NCBI GenBank assembly: GCA_964488865.1
Contig: CAZAWR010000074.1
Location: 1 to 50,624 of the forward strand
DNA: 50,624 nucleotides
Direction: 5' to 3'
Origin: an uncultured Polyangiaceae bacterium
Lineage (GTDB): Bacteria; Myxococcota_A; Polyangia; Polyangiales; Polyangiaceae
Under the pieces are notes generated by a model, which was given only the letters and a program-made list of their open reading frames with translations, was not told the DNA's origin and searched no databases. Positions within the stretch are counted from its first letter, which is position 1. The number at the start of each line of letters is the position of its first letter. Made by a program: the position numbers and the translations under genes. This document shows positions 2 to 9,957 of this stretch, one piece after another.

Positions 2-1054
2 GGCGGCGTGACGGGCGGCTCGGGCGGCGGCGTGACGGGCGGCTCGGGCGGCGGCGTGACGGGCGGCTCGGGCGGCGGCACCAGCGCTTGCCAGCTGGAG
101 TACCCCAGCCTTCCCGCAGCGTGCAACAGCTGCCTGCAGACCGAGTGCGAGACCCAGTGCGTCGACATCCAGACGGACGCCGACTTCGCCGCGTACCAGA
201 GCTGCCTGCAGGGCTGCTCCGAGGACGACGACGCCTGCATGACGGGCTGCGACAACTCGTTCCCGACCACCGCCGCGAAGTTCGACACCTTCGTCACCTG
301 CATCGGCGCCGAGTGCGGAGCCGAGTGCGGCGGCACCACCGGCGACTGCATCGTCGGCTGGAATGAACCGGCGTGCCTCGACTGCGCCACGGCCAAGTGC
401 GCGGCCCAGTGCAAGACCTACTCCGAGCTGCCGAACGCGATGGACCACTTCAACTGCGTCCTCGGCTGCGACGACCAGGGCTGCATGGACGGCTGCGACG
501 CGACGTACCAGGCCGAGGGCGAGGCGTTCAATACGTACTACGCTTGCGTCAGCGATGGCTGCAAGGACGAGTGCGGCATCAGCGACTTCTTCGAGATCTG
601 CGACAGCGGGCTGGGACTCGGCAACGAAACGTGCGCCACTTGCGTGGGCGACAGCTGCTGCACCGAAGTCAAGGCGTGCGCGGCCGACACCGCCTGCTAC
701 GCCTGCCTCACCGGCGGCGGCACCGGCTGCGACACCAACACGCTGGCCACTGCGGTCGACACCTGCTGGGAAACGAACTGCACCGCGGCGTGCACGACCA
801 CCGGCGAATGCACCCTCTCCTTTGGGACCAACACCGCTTGCACCGACTGCATGAACGCCAATTGCGAAACCCAGTGCATCGCGGCGTCTGACGACCCGAA
901 CACCGGGGATTACCTCGCGTGCGTCAACGCGTGCACCGACCAGGCGTGCACGGACACCTGCGACGGCCAGTTCCAGGCGACCGCTGCGCTCTTCGCCACC
1001 CTCGAGACCTGCCTGACCGCTCAGTGCGAGACCCAGTGCGCGGCCACTCCGTGA
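2..1054 (+). CDS. Secreted cysteine-rich tandem-module protein, 5'-partial (continues upstream of window)
   Basis: ORF is open from the window start. N-terminal (GGSGGGVT)n is encoded by a 24-bp tandem DNA repeat. It is followed by four ~75-aa modules, each with 8-10 Cys in recurring CxxC...CxxxC spacing (e.g. ACNSCLQTECETQC, ACLDCATAKCAAQC, ACTDCMNANCETQC). GC3 is high. Confidence 0.6.
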   Translation, partial: GGVTGGSGGGVTGGSGGGVTGGSGGGTSACQLEYPSLPAACNSCLQTECETQCVDIQTDADFAAYQSCLQGCSEDDDACMTGCDNSFPTTAAKFDTFVTCIGAECGAECGGTTGDCIVGWNEPACLDCATAKCAAQCKTYSELPNAMDHFNCVLGCDDQGCMDGCDATYQAEGEAFNTYYACVSDGCKDECGISDFFEICDSGLGLGNETCATCVGDSCCTEVKACAADTACYACLTGGGTGCDTNTLATAVDTCWETNCTAACTTTGECTLSFGTNTACTDCMNANCETQCIAASDDPNTGDYLACVNACTDQACTDTCDGQFQATAALFATLETCLTAQCETQCAATP

Positions 1055-1063
1055 CCTAGGCGC

Positions 1064-2056
1064 ATGACGCGGGATACCGTCCGCGGCGTCCCGCGTAGCC
1101 TCTCCCTCCCTCCCATCCTTCTCGTTGCTTCCGCAGTCCTCGTTCTGTCGTGGACGCCTCTTCCCGTTGCACAGGCACAAGCACAGGACCGCCCGCGACG
1201 GACAGGCGCCCTCGCCCCTGCCCCCTCGTCCCGCGCCCTCACCGGTGGCGTGGTCACCCTGCTCACGCCGGGCCCAGCCGAGATCTTGTTTCCGCGGGGC
1301 ACCTTCACCATGGGCTCGTCCCGTGTCGAGGTGCAGCTCGCCCTCGACGCCTGTCGACGCGAGCCCCTCGGCTCCGAGTGCAAGCCCGAGATGTTCGAGA
1401 ACGAACTCGACGCCCACCGCGTGACGCTGTCCCCCTACTGGCTCGACCGCACCGAAGTCACCGTCCAGGCCTACCAGCGCTGCGTCGACACGGGCACATG
1501 CTCGCCCCCTCCCTATCACCAAGGCGCCCGACGTTTCGACGCACCCTCCTTGCCCGTCTCCCTCGTGTCTTGGGAAGACGCTCGCGCCTTCTGCCACTTC
1601 GTGGGCAAGCAACTGCCCACGGAAGCGCAGTGGGAGCGCGCGGCCCGCGGACTGTCAGGACGTCGCTTCCCTTGGGGCTATCACTACGCCACGCGCAGGA
1701 CGAACCACGGCGTGTGGGCGCTCGACAACACGGACGCGTCGGACGGGTATTCCGAGCTTGCACCCGTCGGCTCCTTCCCGCAGGGGAGGACCACGGAGCA
1801 GGTCGAGGACCTGGCCGGCAACGTGGCGGAGTGGACCCTGGACGCGTACGAGGACGGGTACGAAGCGATGCCGGTGCAAGATCCAACGGGCCCCGCGTTC
1901 GGGGCCTACAAGGTCGTGCGCGGCGGGGCCTACAGCTTCGGCATGCCGTGGCTGCGAGGCGCGGCTCGCATGTTCCGAAAAGCTTCGACACGCGCTCCCT
2001 ACCTCGGCTTCCGCTGCGCCCGAAGCGCTTCTCCCAACCCCTCTGGCCATCGATGA
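1064..2056 (+). CDS. Formylglycine-generating-enzyme (FGE/SUMF1) family protein with signal peptide
   Basis: Motifs GTFTMGS, RVTLSPYWLDRTEVT, SWEDARAFC, QLPTEAQWERAARG, VVRGGAY and GFRCAR are typical of the FGE-sulfatase domain. ATG at 1064 is 10 bp after the upstream stop. Confidence 0.8.
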   Translation: MTRDTVRGVPRSLSLPPILLVASAVLVLSWTPLPVAQAQAQDRPRRTGALAPAPSSRALTGGVVTLLTPGPAEILFPRGTFTMGSSRVEVQLALDACRREPLGSECKPEMFENELDAHRVTLSPYWLDRTEVTVQAYQRCVDTGTCSPPPYHQGARRFDAPSLPVSLVSWEDARAFCHFVGKQLPTEAQWERAARGLSGRRFPWGYHYATRRTNHGVWALDNTDASDGYSELAPVGSFPQGRTTEQVEDLAGNVAEWTLDAYEDGYEAMPVQDPTGPAFGAYKVVRGGAYSFGMPWLRGAARMFRKASTRAPYLGFRCARSASPNPSGHR

Positions 2057-2946
2057 AGATCGCTCACCTCTCGGACCCCCACCTGCTGGACCTGCACGGC
2101 GTCCCCTGGCGCACCCTCCTGTCCAGCAAACGCATCACTGGCGCCGCCAACCTGCTCGTCGCTCGCGCGCGCAAGCATCGCGCGCCGATCGCGCGGCAAC
2201 TCGCTCGCCACATCCGCGAGAGCCACGTCGACCACGTGGTCATCACCGGCGACGTCACGAACCTCTCCCTCGACCCGGAGTTCGCGCTCGTCGCACGCTG
2301 GCTTCGGGAGGATCTCGCACTCGATCCCGAGCGCGTGTCCCTCGTTCCTGGCAACCACGACCGCTACACGGGCGACGCGGCGCGCTCTGAAGCGTTCGAG
2401 AGCGTGCTGGGGCCGTATCTCACGGGCGACCTTCCCTCATCCTCGCACTTTCCCTACGTCCGCTTGCGAGGCCCCGTGGCGATCCTCGGCGTCGACTCTG
2501 CCGTCCCGCGTCCTCCTCTCGTGGCGGCGGGCGAGGTCGGACGCGATCAGCTCGAGCGCTTGCGTAAGCTTCTCGAAGACGAAGCGGTACGCCAGCGCAC
2601 GCCCATGATCCTCGTACACCACCCACCGCGCTGGACGCGCTCGTGGTGCAAGGAGATGACCGATGGGCTTCGCGACGCGGCTGCGCTCCAAGCGATCTTG
2701 CCCCAGCGCCCGGGCTTGCTCCTGCACGGGCACATGCATCGAACCATGGTGCATTCGCTCCATGCCGGTCCATCGCGTTGGGCGGTCGTCGGCGCGCCCA
2801 GCGCATCCAGCACGTCGACCGCAGGGGATCGCGCGGCGGGCTACAACACCTACGTCTTCGATGACGAGGGGAAGCTCGTCGAGATGCTGTCGACCACGCG
2901 AGGAGCGGATGGCTCGTTGCACACGAGCGAGCTGCGGTCGGGGTGA
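2053..2946 (+). CDS. Calcineurin-like metallophosphoesterase
   Basis: MKIAHLSDPHL, VVITGDVTN, LVPGNHD, ILVHHPP and LLHGHMH match phosphoesterase motifs I-V. The ATG overlaps the upstream TGA (ATGA), consistent with translational coupling. The overlapping 1150..2946 ORF is an alternate-frame read-through. Confidence 0.75.
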   Translation: MKIAHLSDPHLLDLHGVPWRTLLSSKRITGAANLLVARARKHRAPIARQLARHIRESHVDHVVITGDVTNLSLDPEFALVARWLREDLALDPERVSLVPGNHDRYTGDAARSEAFESVLGPYLTGDLPSSSHFPYVRLRGPVAILGVDSAVPRPPLVAAGEVGRDQLERLRKLLEDEAVRQRTPMILVHHPPRWTRSWCKEMTDGLRDAAALQAILPQRPGLLLHGHMHRTMVHSLHAGPSRWAVVGAPSASSTSTAGDRAAGYNTYVFDDEGKLVEMLSTTRGADGSLHTSELRSG

Positions 2947-3052
2947 CGGGTTCAGAGTGGCCGCAGATGTCACAGAGATTCGCAGAAAGGGGAAAGGGGC
3001 TGGGGAGGCGATCGTCCTGTGCATCGGCGAATACAACCAATGCAACCCCACG

Positions 3053-3304
3053 CGCGGCGATGCCGCGCACACGCTGGACCCGGCGGTGCCGAGTCGCTAC
3101 GTCGGCGGATTTGTACCGACCTGAGCTTGCCTCAAGCATCACCACCCCTTCTGTGGTCTCTGCGGCTTCTGTGGTTTCACGCGCGGCGGTGCCGCGCACA
3201 GCGCTGGACTCGGCGGTGCCGAGTCGCTACGTCGGCGGATTTGTACCGACCTGAGCTTGCCTCAAGCATCACCACCCCTTCTGTGGTCTCTGCGGCTTCT
3301 GTGG
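3053..3304. repeat. Near-perfect tandem duplication of a ~126-bp unit (3053-3178 and 3181-3304) ending in the CTTCTGTGGTCTCTGCGGCTTCTGTGGTTTC element
   Basis: Direct sequence comparison. The units differ by only a few bases. Confidence 0.85.
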
Positions 3305-3481
3305 TTTCTGGGCTCACGCGCATCACCCGCTCTGCCAACCTCCGCACCAACCCACCATCTGTCAAACACGCGACCGCACATCCGCAAACACAACGAAAGC
3401 CATCTGCGGCTCTCTGCGGAATCTGCGGCCAACGAACCGTCTCGGCTCGGGCTCGGGATCAAGCTTGGGAGGATGGGGTGA

Positions 3482-3694
3482 TCAGGAGACCTGGGCGGGA
3501 CGCGTGACGTTGACAGCGAGCAGCCCCTTCGGGCCCTCCTGGATCTCGAACTCCACCGTCTCATCCTCAGCCAAGCTGCGGTGCCCGTCGCCGGTGATCT
3601 GCGAGTAGTGCACGAACACGTCGGGGCCCGCCTCCTGCTTGATGAAACCCCAACCCTTCGCGTCGTTGAACCACTTCACCTTGCCAACACTCAT
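3482..3694 (-). CDS. Cold-shock protein (CspA family)
   Basis: [18 protein letters not shown]...VFVHYSQI is the classic CSD sequence. GGAGG RBS precedes the internal ATG at 3694. The longer ORF start at 3781 is rejected. Confidence 0.9.
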
Positions 3695-3908
3695 GTGAAA
3701 CCTCCACTTGCTGGCTCGCGACGTCCTCGCGAACTCCTTGCCCCCCGGTTCGAACGGATAGATGCGTCCGCTCCGGAGCATGGCAACGCTAATGAAAGCG
3801 CAATGCCGGGGTCAAGTCACAGGGTGGGGATTTGCGGTCGAACGCCGCGGTGAGAACGTTCGCACGGGAACTGACGCGGGGTTTTCAGGGTGGTCACTTT
3901 CTACCGAA

Positions 3909-5672
3909 TCAGGCCTCCGCCGGCTCGATCCAGAGCTCAGAACGCATCGTTTCTAGGTGTTTCTGCAGCTCCTGCAGCCGCGCGTCGTGTTTCTGGCACT
4001 CCGAAACGGCAAGCACTCGCGCCGCCTCTCCCCGCTCTCGCTCCCGGCGCGCCGACGTGAGCACGTCGAGCACTTCGCGATGAACTTCCTCGCCCGCGCT
4101 CACGACCCACGCATCGAGCCCGGTCGCGAACGCTTCGATCATCTCCTCGAGCCTGGGCCCGACCTTGTCCGCGGCTTCCCTCACCGCCTTGGGAGCCAAC
4201 TCCTTCGCCTTGTTTCGCGTCTCCGTCTCCACGCGCCCCCGCATGTACAGCGCGAGCACCGGTGCGGCGAGCACCAGCACCCCGCCGAGCATCCAGTTCG
4301 AGAACATCACCGTCAGCCCCACGCCCGCGAGGGCCGCCACGCCTACGTCGTACGCGAACGTATCGATCTCGATCGTGGGCGAGTGCATGTCGGCTCCCAT
4401 CTTCGTGGCGAGCCGGCCACCTGCGTCCCGCGCGTCTTCCCGCACCAGCGCGATCATCTTCTCCGCAAGCTTCTCGAGAGCCTCGGCGATCTCTTCCGTC
4501 TCCCGACGCGCCCAGTCGCGGAAGGTCCGCTCCAGGAACGCCCCGAGGTGCGCCTTCAGCTCGTCGATCTCCGCACCGTCCACCATGCCCGGGACCTGCT
4601 CGCACACGTCCTCGACGAACCGGTCGAGGTCTCGCTTGGTCCAGGCCTTGATCGCCGCGACCTCCTCCCGGATCGCCGCCCTTCGCTGCTCGATCGTCTT
4701 GGCCTGGCCCGCCAGGTCTTCCTTGATCGCGGCGATGCGACGGTCGATCTCTTCCACGCTCATCTCGAGCGCACGCCGCTTGGCGTCGATCCCCTTGGCG
4801 AGCAAGCCGCACGCCTTGATCCCGTCGCCCAGGGCGTTGTCGAGCATGATGCGGCCGCGCTCCTCGGACAGGAAGGTGGTGAGGTAGCCGAGCAGTTCAT
4901 CCATCCCGGAGTCGTCGCGATGGCCTTCGAGAGCCTTCTCGGCGCTGACGCAGAACACGCGCGGGTTGGTGACGAGCTTTCCGAGCTGCGACTGCACGTA
5001 GCCCATGGCCTGGTCCAGCTCGCCCGGGTCGAGGATGTCCTTCTTCGTCACCACGAACACGATCTTGTCTCGTGATTGCCCGAGCAACTTCTCTTGCAGG
5101 AAGACTCGCTCGCTCTCCTTCACGAGCTGGCCGGCATCCAGCAGAAACAGCACGGCGTCCGACTGGGGGATGTACTCGTAGGTGATCTCGGCGCGCGCCA
5201 GGGACAGGTCATTCACTCCGGGGGTGTCCACGAGTGCAATGTGCTGCCGCAACAGCTCGGCGGGGTACCGGACCTCGAGCACACGCACCGGACCGGGGTC
5301 CGGGTCCGGTGTCGGGTTCCCGATCGCGAAGAGCTTCACGTCACCGAACGCGATCTCCTCTCGCAGCCCGCTGTCGAACACCGCCGTGGCCCGCGGCTCC
5401 TCGCCGTACTCGATCTCGTGGATCACCGCCGTCGTGGGCGTGACCCCCACGGGGAGCACATCGGAGCCGAGCATCGCATTCACGAAGGTGGTCTTGCCGT
5501 GGTTGAACTCCCCCACCACGACCAGGTGGAAGAGGTTCTCCTCGAGCTTGTCCACGACCCCCTTCTGGATCCGGTCGCGGGTGAACGACGTTCCCAGGTC
5601 TCCGGCGACCGCCGTGAGCTGGCCGAGCACACCGAGCACTGACTTTCGCTTTTCGTTGAATGCGTCGAGCAT
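3909..5672 (-). CDS. Bacterial dynamin-like GTPase (BDLP family)
   Basis: G1 motif VVGEFNHGKTTFVNAML and DTPG are present, then long coiled-coil regions and a C-terminal hydrophobic paddle (VGVAALAGVGLTVMFSNWMLGGVLVLAAPVL). Start chosen at MLDAFNEKRK, whose ATG overlaps the stop of the upstream peptidase gene (ATGA). Confidence 0.8.
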   Translation of the reverse strand: MLDAFNEKRKSVLGVLGQLTAVAGDLGTSFTRDRIQKGVVDKLEENLFHLVVVGEFNHGKTTFVNAMLGSDVLPVGVTPTTAVIHEIEYGEEPRATAVFDSGLREEIAFGDVKLFAIGNPTPDPDPGPVRVLEVRYPAELLRQHIALVDTPGVNDLSLARAEITYEYIPQSDAVLFLLDAGQLVKESERVFLQEKLLGQSRDKIVFVVTKKDILDPGELDQAMGYVQSQLGKLVTNPRVFCVSAEKALEGHRDDSGMDELLGYLTTFLSEERGRIMLDNALGDGIKACGLLAKGIDAKRRALEMSVEEIDRRIAAIKEDLAGQAKTIEQRRAAIREEVAAIKAWTKRDLDRFVEDVCEQVPGMVDGAEIDELKAHLGAFLERTFRDWARRETEEIAEALEKLAEKMIALVREDARDAGGRLATKMGADMHSPTIEIDTFAYDVGVAALAGVGLTVMFSNWMLGGVLVLAAPVLALYMRGRVETETRNKAKELAPKAVREAADKVGPRLEEMIEAFATGLDAWVVSAGEEVHREVLDVLTSARRERERGEAARVLAVSECQKHDARLQELQKHLETMRSELWIEPAEA

Positions 5673-6562
5673 CACACCACCTTCACGATCTCGTGGACCT
5701 TCGCGTCCACTTCTTCCATACCAAGCCCATCGTCGCCCAGCCCGGCCCGCTTTCGGTACAGGCGGCTCTGTTCGAAGACACGCATGGCCAGCACGCGCTT
5801 GGGAAGCCAGGGATGGGTCGCGAACACTTCGTTGTATCGCCCGGGCCCCTGCTGACTCTCCTCGTACTGCTCGAGGAACGCTTCGAGGTTCAGGTCGTCG
5901 TAGAGCTTGCGAGATCCCAGGGCGAGCTTGGTGAGGGCGCGGGTGGAGACCTCCGGCTGCTGGACGCACAAGAGCGACGCGCGGTCGCACGTGATTTCGG
6001 CCCTGCGAGACCAGGCCTTGAGGCCCACGAGGGCCGGCGTGACGATCCAACGCACGAAGAGCCCGGCCGCATGCGTCAGGAAGTAGAGCGTGGTCAGGTA
6101 CACCACGTGGTTGTTGTGAATGTGGCCGCACTCGTGCCCGAGCACGCTGGTGAGCTCCTCGTCGCTCATGTGGTCCACGAGGGCGGAGTGCACGAGGATG
6201 AAGGAGTCGTCGTTGGTACCGTAGGTGCCCGCGTTGAGCACGGGGTTGTTGGTGATGTAGATGGTGGGGGTGGCGATGCCGAGGGAGCGTGCGCAGGACT
6301 CCACGAGCCCGTGCACGCGGGGGAACTGCCTGGGCCCTACCTTGACGGAGGTGCCGAGCAGCTCGTTCTTGCCGACGGCCTTGAACATGCGGACGACGGC
6401 TTCGACGGCGAGCTGCACGGGTTTGACTTGTTCGAAGGCCGCGCGGGTTTGGCGATCGGAGACGTAGGCGTAGGCGTGCTCACCTCCTTCTTCGCCTGCC
6501 GACGCGATGGTTTGGCGTTCGGCCAGCCACCCCTGAAAGTCGAGTTGCCCAACACGGGCCAT
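5672..6562 (-). CDS. M48-family Zn metallopeptidase (HtpX/Ste24-like)
   Basis: HECGHIHNNH is the HExxH motif and flanking transmembrane helices are present. Start taken at MARVGQLDF; the upstream part of the ORF looks non-coding. Confidence 0.7.
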   Translation of the reverse strand: MARVGQLDFQGWLAERQTIASAGEEGGEHAYAYVSDRQTRAAFEQVKPVQLAVEAVVRMFKAVGKNELLGTSVKVGPRQFPRVHGLVESCARSLGIATPTIYITNNPVLNAGTYGTNDDSFILVHSALVDHMSDEELTSVLGHECGHIHNNHVVYLTTLYFLTHAAGLFVRWIVTPALVGLKAWSRRAEITCDRASLLCVQQPEVSTRALTKLALGSRKLYDDLNLEAFLEQYEESQQGPGRYNEVFATHPWLPKRVLAMRVFEQSRLYRKRAGLGDDGLGMEEVDAKVHEIVKVV

Positions 6563-6639
6563 TGGGAGCTCCTTCTGCCACGGCCAGTCACCGCGACGGG
6601 GTAACCGTAACCACGGAACCCGGGAGGCGCAATTTGCAC

Positions 6640-8541
6640 ATGGCGCAATCCCCGATCGCATGCGAGGATCCTTTGGATTGGGCGCATTCCGGTGATCGGG
6701 CGCCCTCCCTCGCCAAGGAAGGGGCGAGGTACCTTGCTTGGCACCCCAGCATGACGCAGCTCTTCGGCAACACCACGGGCCTATCTCCTCTCGCGACCCA
6801 GAAGCTCGAACGGATTTACCGGCGACGTGTCCCCCTCGACACGATCGCGACGCCGGAGATGATCCATTCGCTCTGCGAGGCTTCCCATGAAGCATCCCGG
6901 CAGGTCGGTGCGCTCGTGCATCGCTCCGGCCAGGTCGACTACGTGATCGTGGGGGACTCGAACCGGCTGATGCTCCCGGACTTCGGGCGCCTTCGTGCCG
7001 CGAGCGGGCGGTTCCGCGGGTTGCGCCTCGTGCACACCCACCTGCACGGTGAGCCCTTGAGCCCAGACGACCTGGTCGACCTCGTGCGTCTGCGCCTGGA
7101 CCTGATCGCGGCCATCCAGCTGAGCCCGGGGGGAGACCCTCGGGCCGTCTCCTATGCTCACAGCGTCCCGAAGCAACCCCACGCGCCTCCCTACCTCGTC
7201 ATCGGGCCGGACCACCCTTCGCGCCTTCGCGACGACTTCGGCAGCCTCATTTCGAACCTCGAGAGTGAGTTCGCCCGGCATACCCGGACCCATTCCGTGG
7301 TGGCCCAGGTCGAGCGCGCCATCCTCGTGCAGGTGGGGAGCAAGTCCGAGCGCGACTGCGCGCAACGCATGGAGGTGTCCCTGCGTGAGCTGCGCGAGCT
7401 CGCACGAACCGCGGGGGTCGAGATCGTGGAGACCCTCACCCAGCTTCGCGACCGCATCGACCCCAAGCTCGTCATGGGCAAGGGCAAGCTCGAGGACCTC
7501 ATCGTTCGCGCCATCGGGGCCGATGTCGACCTCGTCATCTTCGACAACAACCTGACCCCCACCCAGGCGTCGAACATCGCGCGCCACACGGACCTGCGCG
7601 TCATCGACCGCACGCAGCTGATCCTCGACATCTTCGCGCAGCGCGCCCAGAGCCGCGACGGCAAGCTGCAGGTCGAGCTCGCCCAGCTCAAGTACGCCTT
7701 ACCGCGTCTCAGCCAGAAGGACGATTCGCTCTCGCGCCTGACGGGCGGCATCGGAGGACGGCGCGGTCCCGGCGAAACCAAGCTGGAGATCGGACGACGC
7801 CGCGCGCGTGAGCGCGTCACCCGCCTTGAACACGAGCTCAAGAAGCTCGCGTGCCAGCGGCGCCAGCGTCGTCGCAAGCGCAGCCGGCTCGGGGTCCCCG
7901 TCGTGGCCATCGTGGGCTACACCAACGCGGGCAAGAGCACCCTGCTCAACACGCTCACGCATGCCAACGAGCTCGCGGAGGACAAGCTCTTCGCGACCCT
8001 CGACCCGCGCTCACGACGCCTTCGGTTCCCCGAGGACCGGGAAGTCGTGCTCACGGACACGGTGGGCCTGATCCGCGACATGCCCGAGGATCTGTTTGCT
8101 GCGTTTCGCGCCACCTTCGAGGAGGCTGCCGACGCCGACCTCATCCTGCATGTGATCGATTCCTCCGATCAGGATCGGGACCAGCACATCCGCACCACCG
8201 AGCAGATGCTTGCGGAGATCGGGTGCGAGCAAATCCCCCGCATTCTGGTGTTCAACAAGGCGGACCTGCTGGAGCCGGGCGAAGGCCACCGCCTCGCCGC
8301 GGGCCAGGACCACGCCGTGGTGCTCTCCGCCCTTCGTCGAGAAACCACGCGCGCCCTGTTGAACATGATGGGAGACATGCTCGCCGAGCGCTGGAGCGCG
8401 AGCGCCCTCACGCCCGAGCTCGTGCTGGCTTCGCCCCTCGTGGAAGACTTCGACGAGCAGGAGGACGACCCTTCCTTGACCACGCTCGACGAGATGCTGG
8501 AAGCGTCGGGCAGGCGAGCACGACGCACGAACGCTGCGTAG
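6640..8541 (+). CDS. hflX: GTPase HflX with a ~230-aa N-terminal extension
   Basis: VIDRTQLILDIFAQRA, GKLQVELAQLKY, GGIGGRRGPGETKLE, GYTNAGKST and DTVGLI are present. Start is uncertain: a TTG at 6562 or the ATG at 6640. Confidence 0.8.
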   Translation: MAQSPIACEDPLDWAHSGDRAPSLAKEGARYLAWHPSMTQLFGNTTGLSPLATQKLERIYRRRVPLDTIATPEMIHSLCEASHEASRQVGALVHRSGQVDYVIVGDSNRLMLPDFGRLRAASGRFRGLRLVHTHLHGEPLSPDDLVDLVRLRLDLIAAIQLSPGGDPRAVSYAHSVPKQPHAPPYLVIGPDHPSRLRDDFGSLISNLESEFARHTRTHSVVAQVERAILVQVGSKSERDCAQRMEVSLRELRELARTAGVEIVETLTQLRDRIDPKLVMGKGKLEDLIVRAIGADVDLVIFDNNLTPTQASNIARHTDLRVIDRTQLILDIFAQRAQSRDGKLQVELAQLKYALPRLSQKDDSLSRLTGGIGGRRGPGETKLEIGRRRARERVTRLEHELKKLACQRRQRRRKRSRLGVPVVAIVGYTNAGKSTLLNTLTHANELAEDKLFATLDPRSRRLRFPEDREVVLTDTVGLIRDMPEDLFAAFRATFEEAADADLILHVIDSSDQDRDQHIRTTEQMLAEIGCEQIPRILVFNKADLLEPGEGHRLAAGQDHAVVLSALRRETTRALLNMMGDMLAERWSASALTPELVLASPLVEDFDEQEDDPSLTTLDEMLEASGRRARRTNAA

Positions 8542-8559: not shown

Positions 8560-9957
8560 TCAATCCGGCTGGAACAGCGTCTTCTGGGACCCGTCGATGT
8601 GATAGAACTTGCGGAACGGCGCGCGATCGAACGTGATCGCGCCGAAGGCGTTGACCACGATGGCAAACACGGCCGCGCTGTAGAACAGCCCTCCGAAGCG
8701 TCGTCCGCCGAGGGCTAGCAGAAGGACCAGCATCAGCGAGTAGTCGTTCGAGAACCGGTAGCCGAACTGCATCCAGCCCGTGTTCTGGTAGAGCAAGGTC
8801 AGCGAGGCCACGGCGGCCGTGGTGAGCGTGAGGACGACGACGAGCCAAGAGCCCTTCTTCGGCCACAGCACCCAGAGGTACAGGGGCGTGGTGACCCACA
8901 GGGCGAGACCGTGGGCGTTAATCTGCACGCCCGAGGGGACCTGGTTGAAGTAAGGCACGCTCGCGAGCACGACGCTCAGGTTGCGGCCCAGGTAGTGGTA
9001 GGAGAAGAGTCCCCACTTCTCGATGCGCCCGCGCCACGCGACGGTCAGGTGCTCGTGACCGAACTCGAAGGGGTTCCCGAAGCGGGCGTCGTTGTGCCAG
9101 AGGGCGAGGCCTAGCAGCGCGGCGAGGGGGATCGCGAACAGCACGCATCGCTTCAAGAAAGGCTTCCATTCGAGGACGCGCAGGGTCTCGTAGACCAAGG
9201 CGAGCTTCCCCCCTTGCACCGACGGGAAGCCCCCTCGCAGGCTCATGCGGAAGGCTTCGGCGGCAAAGAGCAAGCCCATCAGGAGCATGGGAGGGCGCGT
9301 GAGGAAGGCGAAGCCCAGCAGCATCCCCGCGAGGAAGGGGTTCCGTGCCTCGATCGCGGCGAGCAAGAAGAACGCGCCGACCGCCACCGCCACCACATGC
9401 GCGGCGAACCACACCGTGCCCTGGACCGCCGTGAACCAGTAGACGGTCCCGAACGCGAAGAGCAACGCGAGCACGAAGTTCGTCGCTTCGCCTCGCTCGC
9501 TGACCTTGCGTCGTCGGAGCCGCTCGAGCACGAGCCACAGGCCTGCCGGACCCACGCCAGCGAGCCAGAGATACGCCTGCCCATCACGAACGTTCTCCAC
9601 GGCTCCCCCGAGCTTGACCCAGGGCAAGAGCCACACGGCGGGGAAGGGCGGGAAGGAGACGAACCACTTGCCGTCCTTCTGCGCGAAGTCGTTGCCTCCT
9701 GCGTAGGGCGGGGGCGGCCCGCGCATGTCGAGCTGGCCGTGAAGCCACGAGTCCGCAAGCAGGGCGTAGTGGTTGTACGGGGTATGCTCGAGGATGCGGT
9801 CCCTCGCGCTCGTGGCGAAGAAGGCCGTCGTACAGATCGCGTAGAGCAGCGCGCCGAGCAGCAAGCGGCGCCGCAGAGAGTCCTTGGCCAACCATCGTCG
9901 CCGCAGCGGAACGCGGGGTGGTAGGACGGCGGGCTTGGGTTCGATCGGGTCCGTCAC
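8560..9957 (-). CDS. Polytopic membrane protein, possibly a GT-C-fold glycosyltransferase (ArnT/PMT-like)
   Basis: Contains 10 or more hydrophobic helices and is rich in W/F/Y. No catalytic motif was verified. Confidence 0.4.
   Translation of the reverse strand: MTDPIEPKPAVLPPRVPLRRRWLAKDSLRRRLLLGALLYAICTTAFFATSARDRILEHTPYNHYALLADSWLHGQLDMRGPPPPYAGGNDFAQKDGKWFVSFPPFPAVWLLPWVKLGGAVENVRDGQAYLWLAGVGPAGLWLVLERLRRRKVSERGEATNFVLALLFAFGTVYWFTAVQGTVWFAAHVVAVAVGAFFLLAAIEARNPFLAGMLLGFAFLTRPPMLLMGLLFAAEAFRMSLRGGFPSVQGGKLALVYETLRVLEWKPFLKRCVLFAIPLAALLGLALWHNDARFGNPFEFGHEHLTVAWRGRIEKWGLFSYHYLGRNLSVVLASVPYFNQVPSGVQINAHGLALWVTTPLYLWVLWPKKGSWLVVVLTLTTAAVASLTLLYQNTGWMQFGYRFSNDYSLMLVLLLALGGRRFGGLFYSAAVFAIVVNAFGAITFDRAPFRKFYHIDGSQKTLFQPD

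Follow-up and report, generated by a model that had tools for sequence, protein, structure and literature searches.

What keeps a zinc metallopeptidase gene and a dynamin gene together in a myxobacterial genome? The question is raised by a locus in a 50,624-nucleotide stretch of DNA from an uncultured Polyangiaceae bacterium (positions 1 to 50,624 of contig CAZAWR010000074.1, assembly GCA_964488865.1; the whole stretch is called the window here), in which the gene for a peptidase of the M48 family runs into that for a bacterial dynamin-like protein (BDLP). The window has a G+C content of ~66 %, and its closest protein relatives belong to Polyangiaceae and other Myxococcota. Both proteins are ordinary members of known superfamilies, and the new part is their pairing. 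The two genes probably form a dedicated operon whose products are partner proteins, and they remain neighbours in nearly all of the related myxobacterial genomes examined.

The two genes lie on the reverse strand. The peptidase gene (5672-6562) starts with an ATG at 6562-6560, ends with a TGA at 5674-5672 and encodes 296 amino acids, while the BDLP gene (3909-5672) extends from an ATG at 5672-5670 to a stop codon at 3911-3909 and encodes 587 amino acids. At the junction, TGATG (5670-5674, reverse strand; in the context GTG GTG TGATG CTC), stop and start overlap by one base, the A at 5672. Inspection of the sequence thereby confirms the observation from which the original prediction started, namely that the TGA of the peptidase gene overlaps the ATG of the BDLP gene, with coordinates, lengths and frames unchanged. 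A Shine-Dalgarno-like GAAGGAG (6569-6575, reverse strand) can be read 6 nucleotides upstream of the peptidase ATG, and a second such element, AAGGTGG (5677-5683, reverse strand), lies in the 3′ end of the peptidase gene, 4 nucleotides upstream of the BDLP ATG, where it may serve translation of the BDLP. Consensus scans for promoters and terminators between 3300 and 7000 gave nothing above shuffled expectation for this operon, and an Rfam search of 2800-7000 returned no match.

It had also been considered that the BDLP might begin further upstream, at an ATG at 6131. The codon at that position is a GTG, and over 5675-6131 the G+C content at third codon positions (GC3) is 0.395 in the BDLP frame versus 0.86 in the peptidase frame; for the whole peptidase and BDLP genes GC3 is 0.86 and 0.88. 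In addition, 40 homologues of 580-620 amino acids align from M1-L2 of the protein that starts at 5672. Because of the GTG codon, the low GC3 in the BDLP frame and the N-termini of these homologues, the start at 5672 stands and the upstream one is rejected. The stretch 5675-6131 also encodes the C-terminal half of the peptidase, a protein to which 120 database entries of 296-298 amino acids are 64-90 % identical. A 740-codon open reading frame (ORF) in the BDLP frame (3909-6131, reverse strand) is a high-GC shadow extension across the peptidase gene. Three database BDLPs (P0258, P0260 and P0262) carry N-terminal extensions of 170-300 amino acids with no domain in them, which are probably the same gene-calling artefact and not fusions.

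Whether the pair extends beyond this genome was surveyed from both of its members. Starting from the BDLP, a profile built on 22 diverse members of its family was applied to species-representative genomes and the best 80 of 586 relatives were used, all of them at Polyangia-type loci: Polyangiaceae (including Sorangium and Polyangium), Labilithrix, Sandaracinaceae and Kofleriaceae/Haliangiales. The M48 partner was sought with an M48 profile on six-frame ORFs, and 78 of the 80 loci hold upstream DNA; in 76 of these 78 an M48 gene lies directly upstream of the BDLP gene on the same strand. On the peptidase side, a diverse M48 alignment led to 80 metagenome contigs, which were counted if they held at least 250 nucleotides of downstream DNA (n = 66), and the BDLP gene is the next gene downstream in 65. 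The synteny survey suggested along with the original prediction thus finds the pair kept adjacent in 97-98 % of cases, far beyond chance, and contradicts the possibility that the pairing is unique to this genome.

The form of the junction, which depends on BDLP start codons estimated from profile alignment, is less uniform. Across the 78 loci the genes overlap in 32 (as ATGA in 16 and as TGATG in 13), are separated by 0-20 nucleotides in 16 and by 21-100 in 26, and lie further apart in four, so that they overlap or stand within 20 nucleotides of each other in 48. What is conserved is the adjacency and not the exact coupling geometry. One metagenomic protein goes further: on a 14.4-kb contig from a JGI metagenome, a 906-amino-acid in-frame fusion (P0243) joins a complete M48 peptidase through two residues to an equally complete BDLP that begins at its normal methionine (...ELIKITG-LF-MSLEQF...).

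The genes around the pair change from family to family, as seen by Pfam-annotated lookups and by clustering of neighbouring ORFs. In Polyangiaceae, genes for HflX and an APH-family kinase lie upstream of the pair, and downstream of it come genes for a small putative GTPase, a histidine kinase and a protein with an AIRS domain (ThiL-like). FabH is encoded upstream of the pair in Sandaracinaceae, and in Kofleriaceae genes for an FHA protein and an LPG_synthase_TM protein stand upstream, while those for a TPR-dynamin and for RNase HII stand downstream. The M48-BDLP pair alone stays the same across these families.

The pairing extends to more distant BDLPs: representatives that are 32-37 % identical to the window BDLP still have an M48 gene upstream. 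A more distant BDLP, P0280 (26-29 % identical), is encoded on a contig of 25.6 % G+C (L171), where the pair occupies 1344-3977 with a TAA/ATG junction; its M48 protein of 295 amino acids is 38 % identical to the window peptidase over the full length and has the N-terminal domain in common with it. Because this pair sits on a contig of such low G+C content, the unit exists outside the high-GC Polyangia, either anciently inherited or transferred as a whole. The L171 pair adjoins a prolyl-tRNA synthetase gene.

Other relatives of similar length lack the partner. No M48 neighbour was found at P0266 (31 % identical), at a Gemmatimonadota protein (28 %) or at P0355, nor at the Paenibacillus and Clostridium relatives, which sit in clusters of two to three dynamin genes. 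Therefore the peptidase partner marks one branch only of the ~600-amino-acid, hairpin-bearing BDLPs. In the Firmicutes clusters examined (L084, 3073-10684; L085, 3079-11738), the ~600-amino-acid homologues of Paenibacillus and Clostridium stand in three consecutive dynamin genes, the third of which encodes 1305-1459 amino acids; the Paenibacillus protein carries beta-helix/NosD repeats, and the Clostridium protein has a weak match to MORN repeats.

The peptidase itself has the M48 catalytic fold. It matches Pfam Peptidase_M48 (PF01435) with 89.9 bits against a cut-off of 20.3, over profile positions 1-182 of 186. The zinc-binding and catalytic motif HECGH occupies residues 143-147 (6122-6136, reverse strand), and the HExxH pattern is shared by all 75 orthologues and does not vary in the diverse M48 alignment. 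By analogy with the M48 family, the third zinc ligand is presumably Glu189 (5996-5998, reverse strand), in the helix RRAEITCDRA. Residues R186, R187, A188 and E189 are invariant in one M48 alignment, the equivalent glutamate is invariant in the diverse alignment, and the Glu-helix motif AE[IV][TS]xDR is found in 74 of 75 orthologues. A further motif, HPxxPKR, varies little or not at all among orthologues, whether close or distant.

Between the HExxH helix and the Glu helix lies a moderately hydrophobic helix-turn-helix (residues 152-185; 6008-6109, reverse strand), the only hydrophobic stretch of the protein, with a Kyte-Doolittle maximum of 1.45 in a 19-residue window. An AlphaFold2 (AF2) model places helices at residues 153-165 and 171-200, and across the family the hydrophobicity of the segment is kept while its sequence varies. 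It is a possible monotopic membrane contact. No signal peptide or N-terminal transmembrane helix was found in the peptidase, which has no hydrophobic segment before residue 152; a distinct and conserved N-terminal domain of ~75 amino acids occupies the place that the first two transmembrane helices (TM1 and TM2) take in HtpX. The enzyme is probably cytoplasmic or peripheral, and may dip into the inner leaflet.

These features bear on the original description of the protein as an HtpX/Ste24-like membrane peptidase, of which the M48 part (PF01435, HExxH) stands and the HtpX/Ste24 architecture does not, since the N-terminal transmembrane helices are missing. HtpX belongs to the same family, has the same kind of zinc site and is the best named sequence match. 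As an orthologue, however, HtpX (M48B) is rejected: the best NCBIfam HtpX model reaches 67.5 bits against a cut-off of 341, over residues 74-175 only, and the HtpX equivalog models score at most 67 bits against cut-offs of 245-422. The four-helix topology of HtpX, with two helices at the N-terminus, is not seen. In Escherichia coli HtpX, TM3 and TM4 fall between the HExxH helix and the Glu helix; the corresponding segment here (~34 residues) is too short for two full transmembrane helices. Ste24/ZMPSTE24 (M48A) is a seven-helix transmembrane chamber of about 450 amino acids. It is rejected as well, because the window peptidase has 296 amino acids and no strong transmembrane segment, and only the catalytic core aligns (164-172 residues).

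The second protein is a dynamin-like GTPase with the expected nucleotide-binding motifs. Pfam Dynamin_N matches it with 98.4 bits (cut-off 27; E 5.8e-28). The G1/P-loop motif GEFNHGKT (residues 54-61; 5490-5513, reverse strand) is present in 75 of 75 orthologues, and its residues G54, E55, G59 and K60 are invariant across three BDLP alignments. The G2-region motif PTT is conserved too, the G3 motif DTPG (residues 149-152; 5217-5228, reverse strand) is invariant in all alignments made and found in 75 of 75 orthologues, and in the G4 motif TKKD (residues 209-212; 5037-5048, reverse strand) K210 and D212 are invariant in one BDLP alignment.

Residues 439-479 (4236-4358, reverse strand) form a hydrophobic hairpin of ~40 residues with Kyte-Doolittle values of up to 1.82, the presumed membrane-inserting paddle. 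All 19 representatives of the BDLP orthologue cluster have a hydrophobic maximum at the matching relative position, and the hairpin residues G452, P471, L473 and A474 are invariant. In the AF2 model (whole-model pLDDT 73), long helices at 257-425 and 482-580 surround the hydrophobic stretch, and confidence falls below 50 at residues 429-480. The protein thus answers to its first description as a 587-residue BDLP with a membrane paddle. A conserved (I/V)DTFxYDVG motif precedes the hairpin. It was considered as a cleavage-site motif of M48-linked BDLPs and rejected as non-discriminating: it is conserved in Polyangia, divergent in the low-GC pair, and partly present in P0266 and P0271, which are not linked to an M48 gene.

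Among proteins of known structure, sequence comparison with the PDB points to the Nostoc BDLP (2j68, 3.8e-22), to Campylobacter DLP1/DLP2 and to IniA (6j72, aligned over residues 41-572). A Foldseek search with the AF2 model ranks 2j69 (2.4e-19), IniA (TM-score 0.50-0.52), Campylobacter DLP1/2 and SynDLP before mitofusin/Fzo1, with S-OPA1 far lower, at rank 27. Judged by these searches and the predicted fold, the protein is a bona fide member of the BDLP1/IniA/mitofusin class, and from its family it would be expected to self-assemble with GTP and to remodel membranes. It resembles Nostoc punctiforme BDLP1 (2j68/2j69) and Mycobacterium IniA (6j72), its best sequence and fold matches, in its G domain, helical neck/trunk and hydrophobic paddle or hairpin, and IniA is also of similar length and aligned along the whole protein. 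It differs from them in sequence, with 18-20 % identity, and in the length of its hairpin (~40 amino acids), which would allow it to cross the membrane instead of forming a surface paddle.

The genomic company of these dynamins differs as well. BDLP1 has been described alone and IniA with a second dynamin and IniB (iniBAC), and neither is known to have a peptidase as partner. Tandem dynamin systems (Campylobacter DLP1/DLP2, Streptomyces DynA/DynB, Bacillus DynA and LeoABC of enterotoxigenic E. coli) belong to the same superfamily and also have operon-encoded partners, whereas the constant partner in the pair described here is a peptidase. No second dynamin stands beside the pair in this window, in Polyangiaceae or in Sandaracinaceae, and one is adjacent in Kofleriaceae/Haliangiales only; a BDLP profile run over the whole 50-kb window matched only 3921-5675 at E <1e-20. 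Membership of the pair in the tandem systems is accordingly rejected.

How might such a partnership work? The peptidase and BDLP genes would be co-transcribed and often translationally coupled, which would yield matched amounts of the two proteins. Both would face the cytoplasm and meet at the cytoplasmic side of the inner membrane, into which the BDLP hairpin would insert. On binding GTP the BDLP would oligomerise and tether, fuse, or repair and seal the membrane, as described for BDLP1, DynA and IniA, and the peptidase would be its obligate partner and a catalytically active M48 enzyme. In the preferred version of this scheme the peptidase would cut the BDLP near its hairpin or a terminus, a regulatory or clearing proteolysis by which assembly could be switched or recycled. 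Alternatively, within the same frame, the BDLP could mark stressed membrane, where the peptidase would remove damaged proteins. Action of the peptidase on the BDLP itself is a tentative proposal. It is favoured because matched production and the one fusion suggest proximity in a complex, because the peptidase is without the membrane-embedded architecture of general membrane-protein quality-control enzymes, and because there are precedents in the OMA1-OPA1 and NfeD-stomatin systems.

In the first of these, OMA1 cleaves long OPA1 into short forms under stress (PMC2806285). There, a zinc peptidase of the M48 family is functionally tied to a membrane-anchored GTPase of the dynamin superfamily, and the same two kinds of protein are brought together here. 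Unlike the present pair, OMA1 and OPA1 are encoded apart from each other; OMA1 is integral to the inner membrane, while the peptidase here has no clear transmembrane helix; and the BDLP is by fold of the BDLP1/IniA/mitofusin class. The resemblance is a functional analogy only. A true bacterial counterpart of OMA1-OPA1, in which the M48 enzyme would cleave the BDLP near the hairpin or trim a terminus to give a soluble or inactive form and would thereby gate stress-responsive fusion or repair, is conceivable, if rather doubtful. The second precedent concerns gene organisation. NfeD proteases cut the stomatins that are their operon partners (STOPP operons); such operons resemble the M48-BDLP pair in their conserved combination of a protein that scaffolds membranes with a protease of its own. 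The families are unrelated (SPFH proteins and a serine protease), and the precedent is one of operon logic only.

The two proteins might also work side by side without touching each other. A housekeeping protease of HtpX type and an independent, membrane-repairing BDLP could share an envelope-stress operon and carry out parallel quality control. HtpX proteins are indeed the closest named relatives of the peptidase, the Polyangiaceae pair adjoins the heat-shock GTPase gene hflX, and protection against membrane stress has been linked to BDLPs, DynA and IniA among them. Co-regulation alone, however, rarely keeps genes adjacent in 97-98 % of cases while every neighbour changes, and for this reason a dedicated partnership is favoured over shared regulation. 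Mere co-regulation also leaves the frequent stop/start overlap, the presence of the unit in a lineage of 25.6 % G+C and the fusion protein unexplained, and the peptidase lacks the transmembrane helices of HtpX and scores far under the HtpX equivalog cut-offs. Parallel quality control is accordingly considered unlikely. The peptidase could also be a non-proteolytic adaptor or chaperone that merely scaffolds or loads the BDLP. In some annotations it goes under the COG name "Zn-dependent protease with chaperone function", and coupled translation suggests matched stoichiometry, as for the subunits of a complex. The HExxH motif is retained in 75 of 75 orthologues, however, and 74 of 75 keep the Glu-helix motif, which speaks for selection on catalytic activity and makes an adaptor improbable.

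Least probable of all is a role in defence against phages or toxins, as a system of the "Dynamins" (LeoA/LeoBC) type in which the protease would be the effector. Bacterial dynamins have been linked to phage defence, and the BDLP matches the PADLOC models of LeoA (E 1.1e-24) and LeoBC (1.5e-09). The LeoA match is generic dynamin homology, though, and the peptidase matches no PADLOC model; membership in the "Dynamins" system is rejected, as there is no second component and only generic LeoA/LeoBC homology of a single BDLP. The distribution of the pair is also the opposite of that of a patchy, mobile defence island: nearly all sampled Polyangia have the pair, apparently in a single copy, it co-diverges with its hosts' families, and it lies among housekeeping genes (hflX, fabH, argH, proS and rnhB) in positions that are family-specific but stable.

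Several points weigh against a dedicated partnership or temper how much should be read into it. Two BDLP loci have no adjacent M48 gene, one with a methyltransferase gene instead (L010) and the other with a secreted esterase-like gene (L082), so that adjacency is not absolutely required, and over half of the loci lack the start/stop overlap. Pairwise divergences of the two proteins are correlated (r = 0.90; 0 of 999 permutations as high; 75 loci) and their mean divergence over the same loci is equal (0.53), but such co-divergence is expected for vertically inherited neighbours and indicates co-inheritance without partner swapping, not interaction. The P0243 fusion comes from one metagenomic gene call, and a frameshift, a sequencing error or a stop-codon error could explain it. 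Membrane association of the peptidase hinges on one weakly hydrophobic segment, and in the alignment comparison no sequence motif separated M48-linked BDLPs from their unlinked relatives. Contact between the proteins, cleavage of the BDLP and a resulting phenotype are matters that we infer, and the membrane-remodelling or quality-control role originally suggested for the module is likewise read from family membership.

The surroundings of the pair show some features of their own. In the window the HflX GTPase gene (6562-8541, forward strand) is divergent and abuts the start of the peptidase gene; its real start is probably 6640 or 6751. Other Polyangiaceae have a gene for an APH-family kinase between hflX and the M48 gene, which is absent from this locus. 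The neighbourhood with hflX is a feature of Polyangiaceae only and lies outside the conserved unit. On the other side, a CspA-type cold-shock gene (3485-3694, reverse strand) follows the BDLP gene after 214 nucleotides. Downstream of it lies a non-coding tandem duplication of ~130 nucleotides (3049-3308; copies 3049-3178 and 3178-3308), with a 107-nucleotide core that is 99 % identical, a 23-nucleotide segment that is 96 % identical and no Rfam match. It is flanked by a 29-nucleotide inverted repeat (2958-2986 / 3403-3431). An ORF that enters from the edge of the window (8-1054, forward strand) encodes a Cys-rich, repetitive protein, rich in Thr, Asp and Cys, with GGSGGGVT repeats at its start and repeated CxxC...C...QC modules. 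At 8560-9957 (reverse strand) a polytopic membrane protein of 465 amino acids is encoded, for which no Pfam match was found at E <=0.01.

In Kofleriaceae/Haliangiales (L038, L053, L065, L169 and other loci) the pair is followed by a second dynamin gene, whose product of ~800-1000 amino acids carries an N-terminal TPR array (for example L065, 8947-11787). A membrane protein of the lysylphosphatidylglycerol-synthase-TM family and an FHA protein are encoded upstream in these loci and RNase HII downstream, and the arrangement looks like a larger, three-component variant of the module. A locus labelled Amaricoccus sp. (Alphaproteobacteria; L012, contig CBDEVG010000045.1, 376 kb) has the FabH/M48/BDLP order of the Sandaracinaceae type, with a junction sequence identical to those of L014 and L019; mis-binning, mislabelling or transfer is likely.

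BDLPs are structurally well described, while their regulation and physiological roles are poorly understood, and to our knowledge only other dynamins or small accessory proteins have yet been reported as their partners. No paper describing an M48-BDLP pair was found in the searchable full-text literature, a body of work outside which most subscription-journal papers lie, so that this is absence of evidence only; within that scope the view of the pair as uncharacterised holds. A peptidase partner that stays adjacent in 97-98 % of cases across the class Polyangia provides a cheap and concrete experimental handle, with which BDLP regulation could be approached as a two-gene experiment. The peptidases of these pairs also make up a distinct M48 subfamily that lacks transmembrane helices, and the genome context allows a guess at their substrate. 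Protease-gated dynamin function, a central element of mitochondrial dynamics, may have a prokaryotic analogue in the pair. If the OMA1-OPA1-like reading were true, protease-controlled remodelling by dynamins would be an ancient prokaryotic invention, and one that could be studied in a system of two genes.

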